Source: Verrucomicrobiota bacterium (GTDB lineage Bacteria > Verrucomicrobiota > Verrucomicrobiia > Chthoniobacterales > Chthoniobacteraceae). Taken from it: a DNA stretch of 64,000 bases. A program made the position numbers and the translations under genes. This document shows positions 3,010 to 47,354 of this stretch, in pieces (the first letter of the stretch is position 1; each line of letters opens with the position of its first letter). The notes under the pieces were generated by a model. It saw only the letters and a program-made list of their open reading frames with translations. It was not told where the DNA came from and did no database searches. The stretch is from NCBI GenBank assembly GCA_037142835.1, contig JBAWZW010000001.1, positions 4,592 to 68,591 of the forward strand, in the 5' to 3' direction.

Positions 3010-3891
3010 TCAGTCGATATAACGTTTCTGCATCTCCCCGTAGGCATCAATCCGACGATCTCGGAAAAATGGCCAATGCGTCCTCTGGGTATTCAGGGCG
3101 GTAAGATCGGCATCAACAATCAAAATTTCCTCCTCATTCGCCGACGCTTTCGCAACGATCTGCCCCGAGGGATCCACCACAAAACTTTGCCCCCAAAACT
3201 CGATCCCCTCTCCCCCATCAGGTGCCTCGTGCCCCACCCGATTGGGCACCGCAACATAACAACCATTGGCGATCGCGTGCGATCGTTGAATGGTTTCCCA
3301 AGCGTCGTGCTGGCGACGACCATAGGCCGCTTTTTCGCTGGGATGCCACCCGATCGCCGTAGGAAAGAAAAGAATCTCCGCCCCCGCCATCGCGGTCAAT
3401 CGGGCGGACTCGGGAAACCATTGATCCCAACAAATACACACCCCGATCTTCGCAAATTTTGTCTGCCAAGCTCGAAAACCTAAGTCTCCAGGGGTGAAGT
3501 AAAACTTCTCATAAAAGAGCGGGTCATCGGGAATGTGCATCTTCCGATACTTCCCAAGATAGCTCCCATCGGCATCGATAATTGCCACCGTGTTGTGGTA
3601 AAGACCAGGACCCCGCCTTTCAAATAAAGAGGCAATGATGACAATCCCCCGCTCCTTAGCCAGAACTCCAAGGGCGTGGGTGCTCGGCCCGGGAATCTCT
3701 TCGGCAAGGTCAAAGTATTTATGATCTTCAACTTGGCAAAAGTATTCCGAAGTAAAAAGCTCCTGCAGGCAAACAATCTGCGCCCCAAGCTCGGCCGCCT
3801 CAATCGTCTTCGCCATTGCTTTGGCTAAGTTGATCTTCGGCTCCGCAGAGCAACGCATTTGCACGAGACCGAGACGGACTTGGTTTTGCAT
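3010..3891 (-). CDS. aguB: N-carbamoylputrescine amidohydrolase (CN-hydrolase)
   Basis: LQELF, YRKMHIPDDP and ICWDQWFPE (E-K-C triad); adjacent to aguA. Confidence 0.9.
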   Translation of the reverse strand: MQNQVRLGLVQMRCSAEPKINLAKAMAKTIEAAELGAQIVCLQELFTSEYFCQVEDHKYFDLAEEIPGPSTHALGVLAKERGIVIIASLFERRGPGLYHNTVAIIDADGSYLGKYRKMHIPDDPLFYEKFYFTPGDLGFRAWQTKFAKIGVCICWDQWFPESARLTAMAGAEILFFPTAIGWHPSEKAAYGRRQHDAWETIQRSHAIANGCYVAVPNRVGHEAPDGGEGIEFWGQSFVVDPSGQIVAKASANEEEILIVDADLTALNTQRTHWPFFRDRRIDAYGEMQKRYID

Positions 3892-5651: not shown

Positions 5652-6065
5652 ATGAATCTTCGTAAACGCGCCGCCCCCCAAGTCCTTGGCTTCCAAATCG
5701 CCCCGATGGTCGACATCCTCCTCGTTCTCCTCTGCTTCTTTATTGTCACTTGGAGTTTCGCAAAAAAAGAACTCGACCTCAAAGTCCGCATTCCTCTCGC
5801 CGAAAATGCCAAAGAATCACCATCAACCGTTAACCAAACCGTTCTCAATGTCCGGGCGGATGGCGAGGTGATCTGGAACAGTAAGCCGGTCCCCCAAGCC
5901 GAATTAGTCAGCCGACTAAAAGATCTCTCCGACATCTATCCCGACTACTCCATCATTGTCCGAGGTGACGAACACGCCGAATACCGCCACATCTCCGCGG
6001 TGCTCGATACCTGCCGCGAGGCGAACATTTGGAATGTGGCCTTCGCTACCCGCAAATCGAAATGA
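5652..6065 (+). CDS. ExbD/TolR biopolymer transport protein
   Basis: IAPMVDILLVLLCFF TM with the conserved Asp; IVRGDEHAEY; follows the ExbB-like gene. Confidence 0.9.
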   Translation: MNLRKRAAPQVLGFQIAPMVDILLVLLCFFIVTWSFAKKELDLKVRIPLAENAKESPSTVNQTVLNVRADGEVIWNSKPVPQAELVSRLKDLSDIYPDYSIIVRGDEHAEYRHISAVLDTCREANIWNVAFATRKSK

Positions 6066-8602
6066 AGCGAGAAATTTTTGCCAGTGTCAGTTTGCTCAGT
6101 TGTTTACTCAGTCACTCACGTGGAGTCGATGCCCCCCCAGCGTCGCTTTTAAAGCCGTTTCTTGATGATTCCAGTCAGCCAATTCCGCGCGCTGAGCCAG
6201 TGAATAAGCCGATTCCGCGCGCCGAAGCCGTGGAGAAACCCATCCCGCGTTCTGAACCAGTCACGACGACACCCAAGTCACCCAACCCACCGGGAACCGT
6301 GAAACCAGCCGAGATCAGTGACCCCAACACCATTCGAATCACCCCCAGTGGCACGCTCCGCTCGCCAGCCCAGCTGCAAGTGGATGTCGCCAACGCCTAC
6401 TACGCACAAAAGAAATTTGAACAGGCCGCTCCTGAATACGAAAAATTCCTTTCCCTTTATCCCAACGCCAGCGAACGCCCCGAAGCCCTCTTCCGTTTAG
6501 GAGAATGCTATCGACTCAGCGGAACAACCAACGCCGCCAAAAATACCTACGAAACGCTCCTTGCTCAGTTTCAAAATGGCGACTTTATCGGTCCCGCAGC
6601 TTACCAACTCGCACAACTCTACTTTGCGGACCGCCAATATCGCGACGCCTTAAGCCTCTATCGAAAGGCCGCCGTTCGCCTCAAAGACCCTCTCGCCGCC
6701 AACTCCGCAAAGTTCTTTAGCGGACGTTGCATGGAAGCCCTCGGGCAAAAACTCGAGGCCCGCGTCGCTTACGAAGAGCTCTTAACCCCATCCGAGAACA
6801 ACCCTTTTCAAGACGCCAGCCGACTCTCGGTTGCCCTCCTTCTCAAAGACAGCGGTCGCAATCCCGAAGCCCTTCGGCAAATCCAAATCCTCGCCGCTAA
6901 AACAGAAAACCCCGATATCAAACTCGAGTCCACAGTGCGAAGTGGCCTCTGGTCCCTCGAAGTCACTCCCCCACAAACCCCCTTGGCAGACGCCGCTTTT
7001 AAAAAAGCCATTACCCTACCCGGTTCCGCTCACTGGAAAGAAATTGCCCAACTCGGGATTTTGCGGATCGCTTTTGATGCGGGAAAATATCAGCAGGTTG
7101 TCGACGCCTATAATCGCCCAGGTTCCCCAACCCCCGTCAACCTCCGAGCAGAGTTTCTGATTATCGTGGGGAACTCTTTCCGCCAATTAAATAAGACCGA
7201 CGAAGCTCTCAAAATCTTCGATCAAGTAGCCAAGGAATTTCCAGACACAGCCTACGCCAAAGATGCCCAGTATGAGCGCCTTAAGATGCTCTACAGCAGC
7301 GGTGATGCCCAAGCACTCACGGCCATCGACCAGTATTTAACCGCCAATCCCGAAGGCGAAAAACACGATCAAATCTTGCTGATGAAGGCGGAGCTCTTTT
7401 TCAAAAAACAAGACTACGCCACCGCCGCCCCCATTTACTCCGCCCTCGAACTCTCCCGCCAACTCAGCGGAACCATGAAAGCGGAGGCTCTCTTTAAACT
7501 CGGGTGGTGTCAAAAAGCCTTGGGAGCGACTTCCCAAGCGACCAAAGCTTTCACCGCCTTTATCGATGGCTACCCAACCCACAAACTGGTTTCCGGGGCC
7601 ATGATTCAACGCGGAATCTGCTGGGAATCGCAGAAAAATTATGGCGCCGCCTTGGCCGACTACAGTGACATTATCCAAAAGTTTCCCCAATCGAAGGAGC
7701 GCGAACTCGCCCTCCAGCGAAAGGCACTCATTCTTGGGACCCAAAGCGACGACGCCAAAATGGCCGAAGTTTTCAAACTTCTGCTCAAAGACTATCCAAA
7801 GACCAAAGCCCGTGCCGAGGCTGATTACTGGATCGGTGATGTCGCCTTCAGAGCAAAGAATTATAAGGAAGCCGTAGAGTACCTGGAAGAGGCCCGTAAG
7901 CTTGAGCCAGATCAATACGGCGAAAAGACGAGCATTCGCTTACTTCAATCCCATTACTATTTAGAGGATAAGGTCGCCACCGCTAAAGAGATCGAATTCA
8001 ATGCCAAAGTAGGAAAATACGCCGTTCCACCAGAAATTCTTCGCTGGCTTGGTACCGAACTCCATTCTGGAAAGGCTTACGATTCCGCCGAAAAATATCT
8101 CCTCATGCTCACCAAGCGAGACGAGGTCATGCCAGAAGATTTCCGCTTGCTCGGGGATAGCCAATTTGAAATTCAAAAGTTCCGCGAGGCCACAGTCTCC
8201 TTCCGGACTTACGCCGAAAAAGTCAAGGGATCCGCCCAACGCGCCACCGCCTTGCTCACTTTAGCCAAAGCACAAATTGCCCTCCGAGACTTTGACTCCG
8301 CTCAAAAGTCTGTCGATGAAGCCGTTGCCCTCCAACCCGAAGGCGATATTAACGGAGAAGCTAAAGTCCGGGCGGGTGACATTCAGTTGGCTCGTGGCAA
8401 CCCCGCAGAAGCCGCGAAACTTTACGAAACGGTTTTTCTAGCAGGAATCGATCACCCAGAAATCACTCCCCGAGCTCTCTCTAAAGCGATCCAAGCAACC
8501 AAACTCGCCCAAGTGGCTGGGAGTGAAGAAAAAGTGAAAAAGTTAACCAACCTCCTGCAAAGCCGCTACCCCGAGTACGTCCAAGGGAACAAAATTCCTT
8601 AA
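6062..8602 (+). CDS. Large exported tetratricopeptide-repeat protein
   Basis: Signal peptide (MKREIFASVSLL), Pro-rich linker and many TPR-like units (EALFRLGECY, EALFKLGWCQ, EADYWIG). ATGA overlap with exbD. Confidence 0.85.
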   Translation: MKREIFASVSLLSCLLSHSRGVDAPPASLLKPFLDDSSQPIPRAEPVNKPIPRAEAVEKPIPRSEPVTTTPKSPNPPGTVKPAEISDPNTIRITPSGTLRSPAQLQVDVANAYYAQKKFEQAAPEYEKFLSLYPNASERPEALFRLGECYRLSGTTNAAKNTYETLLAQFQNGDFIGPAAYQLAQLYFADRQYRDALSLYRKAAVRLKDPLAANSAKFFSGRCMEALGQKLEARVAYEELLTPSENNPFQDASRLSVALLLKDSGRNPEALRQIQILAAKTENPDIKLESTVRSGLWSLEVTPPQTPLADAAFKKAITLPGSAHWKEIAQLGILRIAFDAGKYQQVVDAYNRPGSPTPVNLRAEFLIIVGNSFRQLNKTDEALKIFDQVAKEFPDTAYAKDAQYERLKMLYSSGDAQALTAIDQYLTANPEGEKHDQILLMKAELFFKKQDYATAAPIYSALELSRQLSGTMKAEALFKLGWCQKALGATSQATKAFTAFIDGYPTHKLVSGAMIQRGICWESQKNYGAALADYSDIIQKFPQSKERELALQRKALILGTQSDDAKMAEVFKLLLKDYPKTKARAEADYWIGDVAFRAKNYKEAVEYLEEARKLEPDQYGEKTSIRLLQSHYYLEDKVATAKEIEFNAKVGKYAVPPEILRWLGTELHSGKAYDSAEKYLLMLTKRDEVMPEDFRLLGDSQFEIQKFREATVSFRTYAEKVKGSAQRATALLTLAKAQIALRDFDSAQKSVDEAVALQPEGDINGEAKVRAGDIQLARGNPAEAAKLYETVFLAGIDHPEITPRALSKAIQATKLAQVAGSEEKVKKLTNLLQSRYPEYVQGNKIP
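6179..6268 (+). repeat. 30-bp coding tandem repeat x3 (PIPRAEPVNK / PIPRAEAVEK / PIPRSEPVTT)
   Basis: Read directly in the DNA and in the translation. Confidence 0.85.
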
Positions 8603-8699
8603 CCCCAAACTCCCCCCATTTCTCTCCTTAGACTTGGATGATTTCGCCCCTCAGCTACTCCCTTGATCGATCCGAGAAAAATCGCCAAACTCCCCAGCT

Positions 8700-11006
8700 A
8701 TGAGCATGTGGAATCCCCGTCCGCGGCAACCCTTGGTCGGTCTGGCCTTGGGGGCGGTGCTCGGCATTTTTGGGGCGGATTACTGGCACGTTAATCCGCT
8801 TTGGTCTGGCGCGATTCTCGTTTGCGGACTCCTTGGATTACTCTTTCGCCCATCCACCGCCGCTTGTTCGATTTTCTGCACGGGAGTCTTTTTTTTCCTC
8901 CATAGCCTAACCATCCAAGAGGTGCCAGGTCGCGCACTTGCCCAAGCCTTAGTCGACCGCCCCAGAGTGATCCAAGCGCAAGGAATCGTTTGGAATGAAC
9001 CCGAAGTGCCCACATTCTGGTCGCGCCATATCACCGCTCGATTTCGCCTTCGCCTCGAATCCATTCGACTCGACGACCACTCCTCCGCCTCATCAGGGTT
9101 GATCGACGTGGCTTGGGCAGGCCCTGTTCCCGCCTACGGTGACCGAGTGATCCTCACGGGCAGTGCTTCCAATCTCCCACCCGCACGAAACCCCGGACAA
9201 TTCAACGCCCAATCCTACGCCAACCGCCAAGGAGTCTGGTCAGAGGTTCAATCGTCCTTTGCCACCGACTGCCAAATTGTCAGCCACCACAACGGCAATC
9301 CCGCACAGGCCTTAGCTTACCGATCAGCCCACTGGATTCAATCCCAACTCGCTCTCGGCCTCGAAGATCAACCTGAAATCTCCGGATTAATTACCAGCAT
9401 GATCCTCGGTCTCCGCGGGGAGTCGCCACCCGAAATGAAAGCACTCTTCCAACGAACTGGAACCATGCACCTTTTCGCCGTCAGCGGTCTCAACGTAGCG
9501 ATGCTCGCCGCCATTACCCTTTTTCTCCTCCGACGACTCCGGATTGGTCGCGTTCCAAGCATTCTCATCACTCTTCCCCTCCTTGCATCCTACGCCTTGG
9601 TCACTGGCCTCACCGCAAGTTGCCTCAGGGCTACGGTCATGTGCTCCCTCGTTTTAGTCGCCTACCTCGTGGATCGTCGTCCCCTCGTTTTCAATAGTCT
9701 CGGCGCCGCCGCCCTCGCGATCCTCGTTTGGGATACGAACCAACTCTTTTCCCCAGGCTTCCAATTCTCGTTCGTTCTCGTCCTCACCATCGTCTGGCTT
9801 TCTGGCAAAATCTCTCGTCGCCTCGCTCCCATTGGCCAGCCAGATCCCTTTCTCCCTCGCTCACTCTGGAGCTGGCAAGAGCGAGCCGGATCCTTTCTTT
9901 CCGAAAGTCTCGCCAATACCCTCGGAGTCACTCTTTCCGCTTGGGCTGGCTCCTTCCTCTTTACCATTGGCTACTTCCACCTCTTCTCTCCTTCCGCTCT
10001 CCTCGCCAATTTACTCGCCGTACCCCTAGCCTTCGCCATCCTCGTTCTCGGAGTCGCCTCGCTCCTCACTGCCCCCCTCTGGAGCTTCGGCGCCGTCCTC
10101 TGCAATAATGCCAATTGGCTTTGTGCCAAAATTCTCCTCCTCATCTTGCAAATCTGTTCCCTGATTCCCGGTGGATGGATTTACCTCGAAACCCCCTCCC
10201 TCCACCCTTCCCCAATTTGCGAGTTCACGGTTTTCGATCTCGCCCAAGGAGGCGCCACCCATCTCCGAAGCGAAGGCGAAGATTGGCTTTTCGATTGCGG
10301 TTCCCTCCAAAACTACCAACACATTCTCCTCCCCTATCTTCGCACCCGAGGAGTCAACCAACTCGACGGCTTCCTCATCACCCACGGCGATGCCAAACAC
10401 CTCGGCGGAGCTCTGGCACTTCTCGCCGACTTTCAACCAAGGTCGATCGTCGACTCGGTTCTCCGAGATCGCTCCACCACCCGTCGGGAAATCCACGCCA
10501 CCCTCGCCAAAATCCCCCAGGGAAAAGGCCTCTATCGTCGGGGCGATACCATCTTCATCAGCCCTCAGTCCACCCTTCGTGTGCTCTATCCACCAGCAGG
10601 TATCCAGCGAGGGAGCGCCGACGACAAAGCCCTCGTGGTTCAACTATCCGTCAAAGGAACGCGGGTGCTTTTCCTCTCCGATAGTGGATTTAGGACCGAG
10701 CAGTGGTTGCTCGAAAATGAAGCGGATTTACGCTGCGACCTCTTAGTAAAAGGTCAGCACGCTAAGGATCTCTCGGGCACGCTCGACTTCATCGCACGCG
10801 CCCAACCGGCGGCGGTGATTTGTAGCCAAGCCAATTTTGGCGAACCTCCCGAGATCCTTGCCGCCTGGGAAGAAAGTGTCCGCAAACTTGGTATCGAAGT
10901 TTTCCGGCAAGACCGCGGTGGAGCCGTCGAAGTGAAAATAAATCAAGACGGATTCACCGTCGAAAGCTTCCTCGGCGATCAGCACTTTCGCAGCCGCGCC
11001 CGGTAA
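8700..11006 (+). CDS. comEC: ComEC/Rec2 competence protein (DUF4131 + Competence + MBL domain)
   Basis: RNPGQFN, GTMHLFAVSGLNV, RATVM, GFQFSF and ANLLAVP; C-terminal MBL fold (VFDLAQG, ITHGDAKHLGG). Confidence 0.9.
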   Translation: MSMWNPRPRQPLVGLALGAVLGIFGADYWHVNPLWSGAILVCGLLGLLFRPSTAACSIFCTGVFFFLHSLTIQEVPGRALAQALVDRPRVIQAQGIVWNEPEVPTFWSRHITARFRLRLESIRLDDHSSASSGLIDVAWAGPVPAYGDRVILTGSASNLPPARNPGQFNAQSYANRQGVWSEVQSSFATDCQIVSHHNGNPAQALAYRSAHWIQSQLALGLEDQPEISGLITSMILGLRGESPPEMKALFQRTGTMHLFAVSGLNVAMLAAITLFLLRRLRIGRVPSILITLPLLASYALVTGLTASCLRATVMCSLVLVAYLVDRRPLVFNSLGAAALAILVWDTNQLFSPGFQFSFVLVLTIVWLSGKISRRLAPIGQPDPFLPRSLWSWQERAGSFLSESLANTLGVTLSAWAGSFLFTIGYFHLFSPSALLANLLAVPLAFAILVLGVASLLTAPLWSFGAVLCNNANWLCAKILLLILQICSLIPGGWIYLETPSLHPSPICEFTVFDLAQGGATHLRSEGEDWLFDCGSLQNYQHILLPYLRTRGVNQLDGFLITHGDAKHLGGALALLADFQPRSIVDSVLRDRSTTRREIHATLAKIPQGKGLYRRGDTIFISPQSTLRVLYPPAGIQRGSADDKALVVQLSVKGTRVLFLSDSGFRTEQWLLENEADLRCDLLVKGQHAKDLSGTLDFIARAQPAAVICSQANFGEPPEILAAWEESVRKLGIEVFRQDRGGAVEVKINQDGFTVESFLGDQHFRSRAR

Positions 11007-44767: not shown

Positions 44768-44937
44768 AAAATATTCCTTACTTTCGACACTCCGAACGGA
44801 CCCTGTCGAGAACCATATGCGAGAGAATCGATCGCCACCCCTTTCCTCAATATCCACATTCGCAATCGCATATCCGTCTCGTCATTCCGCTAAAACGATG
44901 GTTGATTCCCCGCAAAACTTCATCGCAAATTACCCTT

Positions 44938-45447
44938 ATGACCTCCCTCAAATCCAACACCGCAAAGGAACCCAAGCGCCTTCCCGTGCTTCTACGCCGA
45001 GCGTGGTATGGGCTAAATCAAACCTTCCGCCAACGGATCGCCCATCTTGGAATCACTCCTGATCAATTCAGTATCCTTCGCTGGGTCCATGAATCTGGAA
45101 CTGCAGGCCTCACCCAACGCGCTTTAACCGATCTGATGGCTAGCGATTCCAGCACGATCGCTGGCACTCTCTCCCGCATGGAAAAGACGGATCTCGTCAA
45201 GCGACAACCTCACGAAAGCGATCGACGCGCTCGCCGAATTCAACTCCAACCCAACGGCATTAAAGCCCTCAGCGCTGGCCATACAATCGCCCAAGATCTT
45301 CAGGATCATATTCTTGAAGCGTTGCCGCTCATCCAGCGCGAGCTATTTCTCGCTAATCTCGAAGTCATTGCCGAGGCCTGCTCCGTCTCCCACACCCACA
45401 GTCTTCATCAAGAATCCTCCGCAATCCCCAAAGGGAGTCGCCCTTAA
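44938..45447 (+). CDS. MarR-family transcriptional regulator
   Basis: GITPDQFSIL, TQRALTDLM, LSRMEKTDLVKR and DRRARRIQL; divergent from fabG. Confidence 0.9.
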   Translation: MTSLKSNTAKEPKRLPVLLRRAWYGLNQTFRQRIAHLGITPDQFSILRWVHESGTAGLTQRALTDLMASDSSTIAGTLSRMEKTDLVKRQPHESDRRARRIQLQPNGIKALSAGHTIAQDLQDHILEALPLIQRELFLANLEVIAEACSVSHTHSLHQESSAIPKGSRP

Positions 45448-46370
45448 AACAGCTCACCCTGGGTCGACTCCACCACCACCGACGAAGTTATTCCCGCTTC
45501 CTCCGCCCGAACTTCCGCAATTAGGGATTTAAAGTCGCACTTTTCTAACTCCGCGATGAGCTCTCGCCAACGCGGCAGGATCTTTAACTCGTCAATCGGG
45601 GTGGGCAAAGGAAGATCTAGATCAAGTCGAATCATCTCTCGATTTTGCTCGATCTGCTCAAGAGCCGTCTGAACTTTATCCCGCAAACGATCATTCTCAA
45701 TCGCGTTAGGATTCGCCAAAATCGCGTCGAGCGGTCCGTAATTCGCCAACAATGCCACCGCCCCTTTAACCCCGAGACCAAAGACGCCAGGAATGTTATC
45801 GGCTTGATCTCCAGTCAGCGCCAACATCTCCGCAATTTGCCAAGGAGGAATCCCCCACTTCTTTGACACCGCTTCCACGCCAAGGAGGGCAAACGTGTCC
45901 TTCGGAGAAGAAAAATCCGCTTTAATCGTGGAGTAGATTTTCACCCGATCGTTCACCAACTGAAAGAGATCCTTGTCCCTCGTCGCCACAAAAACTTCGT
46001 GCCCCTCTGCCGTCGCCGCTACCGCGTAGGATGCGATCAAATCGTCGGCCTCTGTTTCAGGCAAAGAAAGACCAGCGAATCCCAGCAATGGCAGAAGATT
46101 CTGCAGGAAAACAAGTTGCGACCGCATATTTTCGGGCATCTCGGCTCGCTGTTGCTTATAAGCTGGCTGTAAGGCCGCCCGACGAAGCGGGATGCCTCTG
46201 TCCCAAACCACCGCCCCGTAGTCCGGAGATAGATCCCTGACCATCTTCCGAACCGCCTTCACAAAACCATAAATCGCACTGACTGGTTCACCCCGAGAGT
46301 TCTTCAAGTCTCGGATCGCAAAAAAAGACCGGTAGGCGTAGTAATGACCATCGATAAGCAAAAGTTTCAT
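45444..46370 (-). CDS. Stand-alone 5'-3' exonuclease (PolI N-terminal/FEN-like)
   Basis: LIDG, EADDLI, TRDKDLFQL and ALTGDQADNIPGVFGLG; C-terminus QGELF. Confidence 0.93.
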   Translation of the reverse strand: MKLLLIDGHYYAYRSFFAIRDLKNSRGEPVSAIYGFVKAVRKMVRDLSPDYGAVVWDRGIPLRRAALQPAYKQQRAEMPENMRSQLVFLQNLLPLLGFAGLSLPETEADDLIASYAVAATAEGHEVFVATRDKDLFQLVNDRVKIYSTIKADFSSPKDTFALLGVEAVSKKWGIPPWQIAEMLALTGDQADNIPGVFGLGVKGAVALLANYGPLDAILANPNAIENDRLRDKVQTALEQIEQNREMIRLDLDLPLPTPIDELKILPRWRELIAELEKCDFKSLIAEVRAEEAGITSSVVVESTQGELF

Positions 46371-46482
46371 AAGTAGATCGAAGAGTACGGGCGGACCAAG
46401 AATAGTGCCCAAGGCCAAGTTCTGCCAAACCTCTTCAAACGATCAGCCAGACAAATTTACGCCTCACCTAAACTGCCCAGAA

Positions 46483-46614
46483 CTAGTCGTCGAGATCGAA
46501 TCGCATCTGCGCAGGAGGAACGCGACGATCACGCTCCCGGGCGCGAACCTGACGCCGATGAAGCCAAATAAATAAAAGCGAAACCAAAGTGAGCTCCACA
46601 ATGAGGTCGTACAT
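46483..46614 (-). CDS. Putative 43-aa single-TM peptide downstream of lexA (not in the ORF track)
   Basis: Hand translation gives MYDLIVELTLVSLLFIWLHRRQVRARERDRRVPPAQMRFDLDD*. It starts 21 nt after the lexA stop and has positive-inside topology. Confidence 0.55.
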   Translation of the reverse strand: MYDLIVELTLVSLLFIWLHRRQVRARERDRRVPPAQMRFDLDD

Positions 46615-46635
46615 AATATTCAAAATGGGTTCCAA

Positions 46636-47244
46636 TCAAAACTTCCGAATCAATCCGACCAACACCCCTTGAATGATTAACTCCGCAATCGGAATTAGAT
46701 CAGGAAACAACGGGTTTTCAGCGTGAAGAAATGGGCGTTCCCGCTCCACGAGATAGCGCTTCAGGGTGGTCTCCCCATCAATCAATGCCGCCACAACCGC
46801 CCCAGATACCGGCGGACGATTCTCCAAAACAACCAAGTCCCCATGATAAATCCCTGCCCCAATCATCGAGTCTCCGCGGACTTTCAAAGCAAAGACCCTT
46901 TGCCCCCTTCGTAGCCCGATACTCGCCGCGTCGATCGATACCAATCCTTGATTATCCTGTTCCGTTGTCTCCGAGTAACCCGCGGCAATCTGCCCATAAA
47001 GAGGAACATCAATAATCGTCCGCCTCTCCAGTTGACTCATCGGCACCGCCGCTCGAGCTCGGCCATCTGCCTTCTGAATCACTCCCTTTCGCTCCAAAGC
47101 GCGCAGGTGGTTGATTGCCGCTGTCTGGCTACTAAACCCAAAGTGCTTTTGAATTTCCCGACTCGATGGAATTAATCCCGACTGCGCCTGCGAGTCGGCA
47201 ATAAAATCCAAAACTTCCTGCTGACGTTGCGTGAGCTTGTTCAT
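46636..47244 (-). CDS. lexA: SOS repressor LexA
   Basis: LTQRQQEVL, PSSREI, HLRALERKG, GQIAAG (Ala-Gly cleavage site), VRGDSMI (Ser) and TLKR (Lys). Confidence 0.96.
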   Translation of the reverse strand: MNKLTQRQQEVLDFIADSQAQSGLIPSSREIQKHFGFSSQTAAINHLRALERKGVIQKADGRARAAVPMSQLERRTIIDVPLYGQIAAGYSETTEQDNQGLVSIDAASIGLRRGQRVFALKVRGDSMIGAGIYHGDLVVLENRPPVSGAVVAALIDGETTLKRYLVERERPFLHAENPLFPDLIPIAELIIQGVLVGLIRKF

Positions 47245-47257
47245 GTTCTTGCGAACA
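47244..47257. promoter_or_regulatory. Verrucomicrobia-type LexA box TGTTC-N4-GAACA
   Basis: Perfect TGTTC-TTGC-GAACA overlapping the lexA start. A degenerate second site TGCCA-TAAT-GAACA lies at 47259-47272. Confidence 0.85.
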
Positions 47258-47354
47258 CTGCCATAATGAACACCCTTTGCAATCAAAAAATTACTGCCCA
47301 TTAGATTGATTTGATCTTTTCCTTCTGAAGGTTGCTCGGCAATAAGGCAGGCGT

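Follow-up and report, generated by a model that had tools for sequence, protein, structure and literature searches.

A lexA-linked 43-residue microprotein with a candidate sliding-clamp motif, and a solo flap nuclease with a clamp-type tail, in a freshwater Verrucomicrobium

SOS-induced inhibitors of cell division of the SidA, YneA, SosA, DivS, ChiZ and DdrR kind are small membrane proteins of 29–165 amino acids (aa) that have a narrow taxonomic range and are encoded next to the SOS repressor gene, and more of them are expected to be discovered (PMC13689564). TisB and DinQ, likewise under LexA control, are short inner-membrane peptides with a single helix (PMC12648545; PMC3567139). A 2026 survey describes the loss of DNA polymerase I (Pol I) in Verrucomicrobia and Tenericutes that have a solo 5'-3' exonuclease resembling a flap endonuclease (FEN) (PMC12926913). 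Here we analyzed a 64-kb stretch of DNA (the window) from the 3.68-Mb metagenome-assembled genome (MAG; 95.7% complete) of a freshwater Verrucomicrobium, in which lexA, a 43-aa open reading frame (ORF) and a 5'-3' exonuclease gene follow one another on the minus strand. The original prediction, made from the sequence of the window, had read these three genes as an SOS unit, and the distances, sequences and end motifs that it gave for the lexA locus were all correct on re-measurement. The LexA operator and the solo FEN are already known. No description exists in the searchable literature for the microprotein family, for its clamp-type tail and link to lexA, or for the clamp-type tail of a solo FEN in bacteria that lack Pol I, and we know of no SOS checkpoint effector described for Verrucomicrobiota.

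Based on purifying selection in its own frame only, the 43-aa ORF (MYDLIVELTLVSLLFIWLHRRQVRARERDRRVPPAQMRFDLDD) is a real protein-coding gene. A six-frame search (E ≤ 1e-3) recovered the ORF from 23 of 28 genomes of the same genus, in open frames of 48–56 codons, and from no genome among 32 belonging to other genera. Its start lies 5–22 nt past the lexA stop codon at each locus retrieved. This is the conservation downstream of lexA in relatives that the original prediction had proposed to check. Amino-acid identity across the genus is 44–63%. Among 19 distinct orthologues, 50% of the differences fall at third codon positions, and the ratio of non-synonymous to synonymous change (pN/pS) is 0.44 in the proposed frame, compared with 1.19 and 1.90 in the other two frames. 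In the closest population, where the protein is 91% identical, differences in the tail are synonymous only.

Searched by profile, 1.84 billion representative proteins yielded only 14 clusters, each belonging to the microprotein family, and there is no match in Pfam or NCBIfam. Four weak profile matches (E ~1e-3) in 300 genomes of the order were rejected as homologues from outside the genus, as they are not beside lexA and lack the motif. Because matches are limited to the genus in the genome, order-wide and protein-cluster searches alike, we regard the microprotein, on this distribution, as young and confined to the genus. The ORF had been called hidden and unannotated; it does have neither a name nor a Pfam family, but gene callers have found it in public metagenome assemblies.

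The family consensus is M-L-G-L-x-I-E-F-S-L-V-V-A-L-F-x-W-L-[HY]-R-R-Q-[LV]-R-D-R-[DE]-R-A-x-R-V-[RP]-P-x-Q-[LM]-x-[LF]-x-[LF]-[DE]. The mean Kyte–Doolittle hydropathy of residues 2–19 is 1.6 in this genome and 1.9 for the family, and within this segment the family alignment has an invariant Glu7, an invariant Phe15 and a near-invariant Trp17. Residues 20–35 carry a net charge of about +5.6. An AlphaFold2 (AF2) model places one helix over residues 2–31 with a per-residue confidence (pLDDT) of 93–96 and leaves the tail, residues 32–43, as coil (pLDDT 52–58). We infer a single-pass membrane protein with its N-terminus outside and its C-terminus inside, the tail being probably cytoplasmic because of the Arg-rich flank and the positive-inside rule.

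Classical motifs that bind the beta sliding clamp (DnaN) include QLVLGL in Pol IV, QLSLPL in Hda, QLNLF in UmuC and the C-terminus of MutS. The microprotein tail (RVPPAQMRFDLDD) carries a comparable element. Among 34 distinct family members, the first position is Q in 34, the second is L or M in 33, and the fourth and the sixth are each L or F in 34; positions 3 and 5 vary, and acidic residues follow the motif. Variants include QLHLDL, QLPLPL, QLRLPL, QLRLPF, QMRLGF, QLDFDF and QLSFEF. The candidate pattern, Q-[LM]-x-[LF]-x-[LF], matches the hexapeptide clamp-binding motif QLxLxL/F. As in clamp clients with QL[SD]LF or QLxLxL, a Q at position 1 is combined with hydrophobic residues at positions 4 and 5 or 4 and 6, and the motif lies on a disordered terminal tail, conserved between variable flanks; the members with QLPLPL and QLRLPL are almost identical to the motif of Hda. 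The microprotein differs from these clients in that its carrier is a 43-aa membrane protein with no enzymatic or DNA-binding part.

We also asked which other proteins of the genome have such ends. Only three ORFs of at least 150 aa have a C-terminal Q..[LM]F: the exonuclease of this locus, MutS (contig C14:26279–28849, +), which ends in QMRLF, and NrdR (C16:29476–29964, +), which ends in QPELFP. The identity of these carriers is suggestive only. MutS is a known clamp client in which a C-terminal motif is expected. For NrdR, the repressor of ribonucleotide reductase, a tail of clamp type would be new, though chance may account for it. A nuclease-like protein of the metallo-beta-lactamase (MBL) fold (Lactamase_B_2; C115:7214–8191, −) ends in QLELPF. 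The tail of the Y-family polymerase (PolY) was considered as a reference for clamp motifs within the lineage and was set aside, as its conserved ..SLPLTRGH resembles the RecA-NT motif.

The first gene of the locus encodes a complete LexA. The N-terminal winged-helix DNA-binding domain (PF01726, 74 bits) and the C-terminal S24 autopeptidase domain (PF00717, 71 bits) are both present, and the NCBIfam model TIGR00498 is matched over its full length (1–202 of 203; 152 bits against a cut-off of 111). The translation contains the Ala-Gly cleavage site in QIAAGY, the Ser in VRGDSMIGAG (GDSM) and the Lys in ETTLKRY (TLKRY). The palindrome TGTTCgcaaGAACA overlaps the lexA ATG, and the final A of TGTTCGCAAGAACA, at 47244–47257, is the A of that ATG. 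In all of 100 Verrucomicrobiota loci the same palindrome precedes lexA, its arms invariant and its 4-nt spacer free to vary, and its position is −13 in the Chthoniobacter group. Because of this conservation we identify TGTTC-N4-GAACA at lexA, by comparison, as the LexA operator and lexA as presumably autorepressed. Perfect copies number one in the window, at lexA, and two in the genome; taken alone, the genome-wide count is the chance expectation. The perfect LexA box that had been noticed over the lexA start is borne out by both the window scan and the 100 loci. A LexA-binding motif TGTTC-N4-GAACA, identical to the 14-bp palindrome here, was reportedly described for Verrucomicrobia by Erill et al. 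in 2016. Elsewhere in the genome, boxes with one mismatch precede a gene for a Y-family–DnaE2 (PolY–DnaE2) fusion and a paralogue of the LexA C-terminal domain. With such boxes and few perfect sites, the LexA regulon therefore appears small but recognizable.

Judged by their arrangement across the genus, lexA and the 43-aa gene certainly form one unit. The link to the exonuclease gene is looser. Among 19 related loci, several of which lie on contigs that end too soon to show the position of the FEN gene, this gene directly follows the 43-aa gene in 12, and in one more (L010) it comes after a polymerase gene. Other members of the family have the order lexA–PolY–FEN, and two have lexA–sORF–PolY–FEN (sORF, the small ORF encoding the microprotein). 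Because relatives show these two arrangements, the ancestral operon was probably lexA–PolY–FEN, with the 43-aa gene as a later insertion. The gene that comes after the 43-aa gene is unrelated or convergent in several genomes. Of the SOS unit as first proposed, the junction of lexA with the peptide gene therefore holds at all loci, but the connection to the exonuclease is confined to the family and is not kept in every genome with the peptide.

The spacer between the 43-aa gene and the FEN gene is less conserved than the 43-aa ORF when compared with the closest relative. It contains no convincing terminator, the only terminator-like match being weak and located inside the 43-aa ORF, and Rfam returns no riboswitch or small RNA. 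A sigma-54-like TGGCAG..TTGGC was rejected because its spacing is wrong. Damage-inducible read-through from lexA to the FEN gene is plausible on this layout. The coordinates of all features are collected in Table 1.

Table 1. Features of the lexA locus, with window coordinates, strand and basis of assignment
Feature	Coordinates	Strand	Basis
LexA operator, palindrome TGTTC-N4-GAACA overlapping the lexA start codon	47244..47257	.	Sole perfect match in the window; comparison of 100 loci
lexA, 202 aa, winged helix-turn-helix and S24 peptidase	46636..47244	-	Pfam, NCBIfam TIGR00498, motifs from translation
43-aa microprotein gene (P0001), start 21 nt past the lexA stop	46483..46614	-	Conservation, lexA adjacency, pN/pS
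Microprotein residues 2-19, hydrophobic helix, probable single transmembrane segment	46558..46611	-	Kyte-Doolittle, AF2, alignment
Microprotein residues 20-33, Arg-rich linker RRQxRxRxRxxR	46516..46557	-	Alignment, charge count; topology inferred
Microprotein residues 36-41, QMRFDL, candidate beta-clamp-binding hexapeptide	46492..46509	-	Family motif, non-helical tail
112-nt spacer between microprotein gene and exonuclease gene	46371..46482	-	Motif, promoter, terminator and Rfam scans
Solo 5'-3' exonuclease / FEN, 308 aa	45444..46370	-	PF02739 and PF01367; Pol I matches
Exonuclease C-terminal QGELF, candidate beta-clamp-binding pentapeptide at the end of a disordered tail	45447..45461	-	Conservation, model

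The exonuclease scores above the curated cut-offs for PF02739 (151 bits) and PF01367 (81 bits). Its best matches are Pol I, namely NCBIfam PRK05755 over positions 2–286 and, in the PDB, Taq Pol I over positions 13–285, and not Xni or FenA. On this basis it is an orthologue of the N-terminal 5'-nuclease domain of Pol I, left alone. The genome has one match to PF02739, which is this exonuclease, and none to PF00476. The latter family is missing from 58 of the 61 genomes of the order and from about half of the phylum (61 and 201 related genomes), in keeping with the 2026 survey (PMC12926913), and its absence from this MAG, given the completeness, rests mainly on the clade-wide pattern. Each of the related genomes surveyed has one 5'-nuclease domain, either within Pol I or solo. 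As the sole 5'-nuclease of a lineage in which the Pol I polymerase is missing, it is most likely not a dedicated SOS enzyme but a housekeeping one, a flap nuclease that is tethered to the clamp and acts on Okazaki fragments and in repair; being the only 5'-nuclease of the cell, it must be constitutively expressed. The role of an SOS-unit nuclease, which the original prediction had assigned to it, is replaced accordingly. The protein belongs to the same class as the solo FENs of the 2026 survey, with no PolA1 polymerase and one stand-alone 5'-nuclease; it differs in its candidate clamp motif and lexA linkage, neither of which was found in the searchable text of that survey (PMC12926913).

The C-terminus of the exonuclease reads VVESTQGELF. 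Its description as a clamp-type end agrees with the homologues, since Q-x-x-L-F is C-terminal in 120 of 120 close ones, and with the model, in which residues 297–308 are disordered (pLDDT <50). Within the genus the tail takes the form Q-[GA]-[ED]-L-F after an Ala/Pro-rich linker of variable length. Where solo FENs were sampled in further families and classes of the phylum, most end in QLSLF, QLNLF, QPELF, QRELF, QMELL, QLMLF, QLTLGL, QLEFQF or QLEFNF, which are canonical pentapeptide and hexapeptide variants of the clamp motif. The tails of orthologous FENs thus alternate between a pentapeptide (QGELF, QLSLF, QLNLF) and a hexapeptide (QLTLGL, QLEFQF, QLEFNF), the latter being the form present in the microprotein. 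We consider it very likely that the FEN is tethered to the clamp by this tail.

A close parallel is FEN1 on PCNA in eukaryotes and archaea, where a clamp-docking peptide, the PCNA-interacting peptide (PIP) box, likewise ends a flexible tail and the logic of Okazaki maturation is the same (PMC1636371). The two differ in the clamp (a beta dimer as opposed to a PCNA trimer), in the motif and in the origin of the tail. By analogy, the putative clamp tail of the FEN is a convergent counterpart of FEN1–PCNA, not a case of tail homology. The searchable literature returned no report of a clamp-motif tail on a bacterial FEN. The motif suggests that Okazaki fragments could be matured without Pol I by a nuclease on the clamp, as in eukaryotes and archaea, and this idea would fill a gap left by the survey of Pol I loss (PMC12926913). 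The linkage lexA–PolY–FEN is suggestive as to which polymerase fills Okazaki and repair gaps in genomes without Pol I.

For the microprotein we propose a mechanism that starts from a LexA-autorepressed lexA–sORF operon of which the FEN gene is a frequent third member. Cleavage of LexA would raise transcription of lexA and thereby the amount of microprotein, which would act as a DNA-damage checkpoint effector. Its cytoplasmic tail, with Q-[LM]-x-[LF]-x-[LF] and the acidic residues, would dock in the hydrophobic cleft of the beta clamp, and the docked microprotein would either be a competitor of other clamp clients or retain clamps, together with the encircled DNA, at the membrane. A second, intramembrane partner is suggested by the invariant Glu of the helix. 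The FEN would ride on the clamp through QxxLF for primer and flap removal, as FEN1 does on PCNA, and the placement of its gene behind lexA would add damage-inducible expression to a basal level.

We give slightly less than an even chance to the reading in which the microprotein has a checkpoint role and its tail genuinely binds the clamp. The reading draws on the exact motif pattern in all members, the predicted flexible cytoplasmic tail and the DNA-damage context, and further on the use of the same hexapeptide by FEN orthologues of the phylum and the presence of such motifs in this genome on MutS, the FEN and the MBL-fold protein. If it holds, the microprotein would resemble UmuD2C acting on the beta clamp and Caulobacter SocB in a damage-linked occupancy of the clamp cleft that slows or remodels replication. 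Those proteins are soluble and share no sequence similarity with the microprotein, and neither has a membrane anchor or a gene co-transcribed with lexA. The fuller proposal is of a new class, an SOS-coupled membrane-anchored clamp trap that after damage would hold DnaN, and the DNA on which the clamp is loaded, at the inner membrane through a Hda/Pol IV-like hexapeptide and whose Glu-bearing helix would contact a membrane partner such as the divisome, so coupling replication and division, next to a FEN that has gained a convergent FEN1-like tether in lineages without Pol I; this must be called tentative and rather unlikely.

Several observations weigh against the proposed mechanism. To our knowledge no membrane-anchored clamp binder has been described. 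The motif is short, and C-terminal Q..[LM]F shows no genome-wide enrichment (3 observed, about 2.6 expected). With Glu7 and Phe15 invariant and Trp17 nearly so, the membrane part is, on the alignment, more than an anchor, and these residues suit an inhibitor aimed at the divisome no less well. Undamaged cells would also contain a predicted clamp competitor, given basal co-expression with lexA. As regards the third gene, the FEN gene is not near lexA outside this family, nor in about one third of the genomes that have the peptide. The 112-nt spacer has no LexA box and contains a weak sigma-70-like match (46428–46399), so that the FEN may be expressed independently.

Even so, the locus offers a lead on a possible link between damage signaling, the membrane and the replisome. 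A lexA-linked microprotein with a mutable motif makes damage-induced cell-cycle arrest outside the model groups directly testable. Should the tail prove to bind the clamp, it would be the first clamp ligand with a membrane anchor, and inhibitors of the clamp cleft could naturally be modeled on it.

A different function for the microprotein, which the original prediction had not considered, is that of an SOS cell-division inhibitor of the SidA/YneA/SosA/DivS/ChiZ/DdrR kind. Here the helix would bind a late divisome protein such as FtsW or FtsN and hold back septation until the damage is repaired, and the tail would serve turnover or another partner without binding the clamp. All four traits of the class are found: a length of 43 aa, a hydrophobic helix, restriction to one genus and a position directly after lexA. 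The invariant Glu7 and Phe15 and the near-invariant Trp17 point to a specific intramembrane contact, and the genome has FtsZ-based division. The likeness to the known inhibitors thus covers the tiny size, the predicted single pass, the narrow taxon, the adjacency to the SOS repressor gene and the presumed control by the repressor. However, there is no sequence similarity, and the known members are divergent from lexA, whereas this gene is co-directional with lexA and almost translationally coupled to it. As it lies downstream in the same direction, repression would act through the lexA promoter. YneA and SosA act through extracellular parts, but the extramembrane part here is predicted to be cytoplasmic, Arg-rich and equipped with a clamp-type motif that occurs in none of the known inhibitors, and the hexapeptide pattern in 34 of 34 members is left unexplained. 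Mimicry of the FtsZ C-terminal peptide by the tail, also considered, was rejected since the tail is unlike the FtsZ peptide of this genome, which likewise speaks against a division inhibitor. We regard division inhibition without clamp binding as possible, if on the whole unlikely. The clamp-ligand and division-inhibitor readings are not mutually exclusive.

It is improbable that the tail is instead recognized, for docking or degradation, by another SOS component, such as a protease adaptor, RecA, LexA itself or a PolY–DnaE2 mutasome, with the peptide tuning the SOS response at the membrane. Such a role would suit a peptide tied to lexA in every genome, and in two relatives the gene lies between lexA and the gene of the Y-family polymerase. 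Small accessory subunits of PolY complexes are known (PMC12926913). The known small subunits, UmuD and YolD/YqjX, bear no relation to the peptide and are soluble. The peptide tail differs from the RecA-NT-like motif of the local PolY (..SLPLTRGH), and it matches no known degron.

Still less probable is an SOS membrane toxin of the TisB/DinQ type, which would oligomerize through a charged helix residue, dissipate the proton gradient and cause dormancy. The conserved acidic residue in the helix does resemble the charged pore-lining residues of such toxins. At this gene, however, we found no signal for an antisense RNA or its promoter, no separate promoter, no LexA box of its own and no long structured leader, and Rfam is empty. 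Co-translation with a constitutively expressed lexA would be dangerous in the case of a toxin, and a highly charged, strictly conserved tail of 24 residues is atypical. The toxin reading is disfavored because antisense control is lacking and the gene is co-expressed with lexA. Last, the notion that the ORF is a chance frame, or one retained solely because it couples translation or shapes the mRNA between lexA and the gene that follows, could appeal to its very short length and the lack of a Shine–Dalgarno sequence and of an annotation name, but it is effectively refuted by the selection pattern (44–63% identity across the genus, third-position-biased change and pN/pS below 1 in this frame alone) and by retention of the ORF where the downstream gene differs or is convergent.

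Around this locus and elsewhere in the genome we made several further observations. Downstream of the exonuclease gene, a gene for a MarR-family regulator (window 44902–45447, +) is convergent with it and overlaps it by 4 nt at the exonuclease stop codon, and the pair is retained in the closest relatives. A second TGTTC half-site (window 47263–47272, −; GGTGTTCATTATGGCAGTGTTC) is located 14 bp upstream of the operator's first arm, and may give the lexA promoter an extra half-operator or a direct repeat.

We looked behind lexA in other Verrucomicrobiota for analogous small ORFs combining a transmembrane helix with QLxLxL and found none; Y-family polymerase, anti-sigma-like or zinc-ribbon proteins are encoded there instead. 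In Verrucomicrobiales and Akkermansiaceae the genes after lexA (loci L052, L060, L061, L064, L066 and L075, at about 3100–3700; L047, L068, L077, L085 and L095) are of two types. One encodes proteins of 130–170 aa with a DPVWDLLRQSP...FADRVM motif and a C-terminal membrane helix (anti-sigma-like), and the other encodes proteins of 420–510 aa with an N-terminal zinc ribbon, ISFxCPxCG..LTVP..GPCPxC. Both types are candidates for other lineage-specific SOS effectors.

The other perfect TGTTC-N4-GAACA of the genome (contig C41:12754) is 11 nt before an ORF of 133 aa of unknown function, upstream of the ATP synthase operon, and may be a chance site. On contig C76 (about 5870–10036, −), outside the window, a single frame of 1388 aa joins a Y-family polymerase to a DnaE2-like polymerase. 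The Y-family part (IMS and IMS_C) looks active, with intact DADAFF and SIDEGY motifs, and the DnaE2-like part has PHP, DNA_pol3_alpha, fingers and HhH; a LexA-box variant, TGTTCAAATAAACA, is located about 82–95 nt upstream of the frame. Relatives encode the Y-family polymerase in a gene of its own (about 385 aa) within the lexA operon, and the frame on C76 could be a true PolY–DnaE2B fusion or an artefact of assembly or frameshift. Finally, a paralogue of 162 aa on contig C30 (near 4029, −), 3 nt after the box variant TGATCAAATGAACA, has only the LexA C-terminal S24 domain and no DNA-binding domain, and is perhaps a UmuD-like accessory protein or a LexA decoy.

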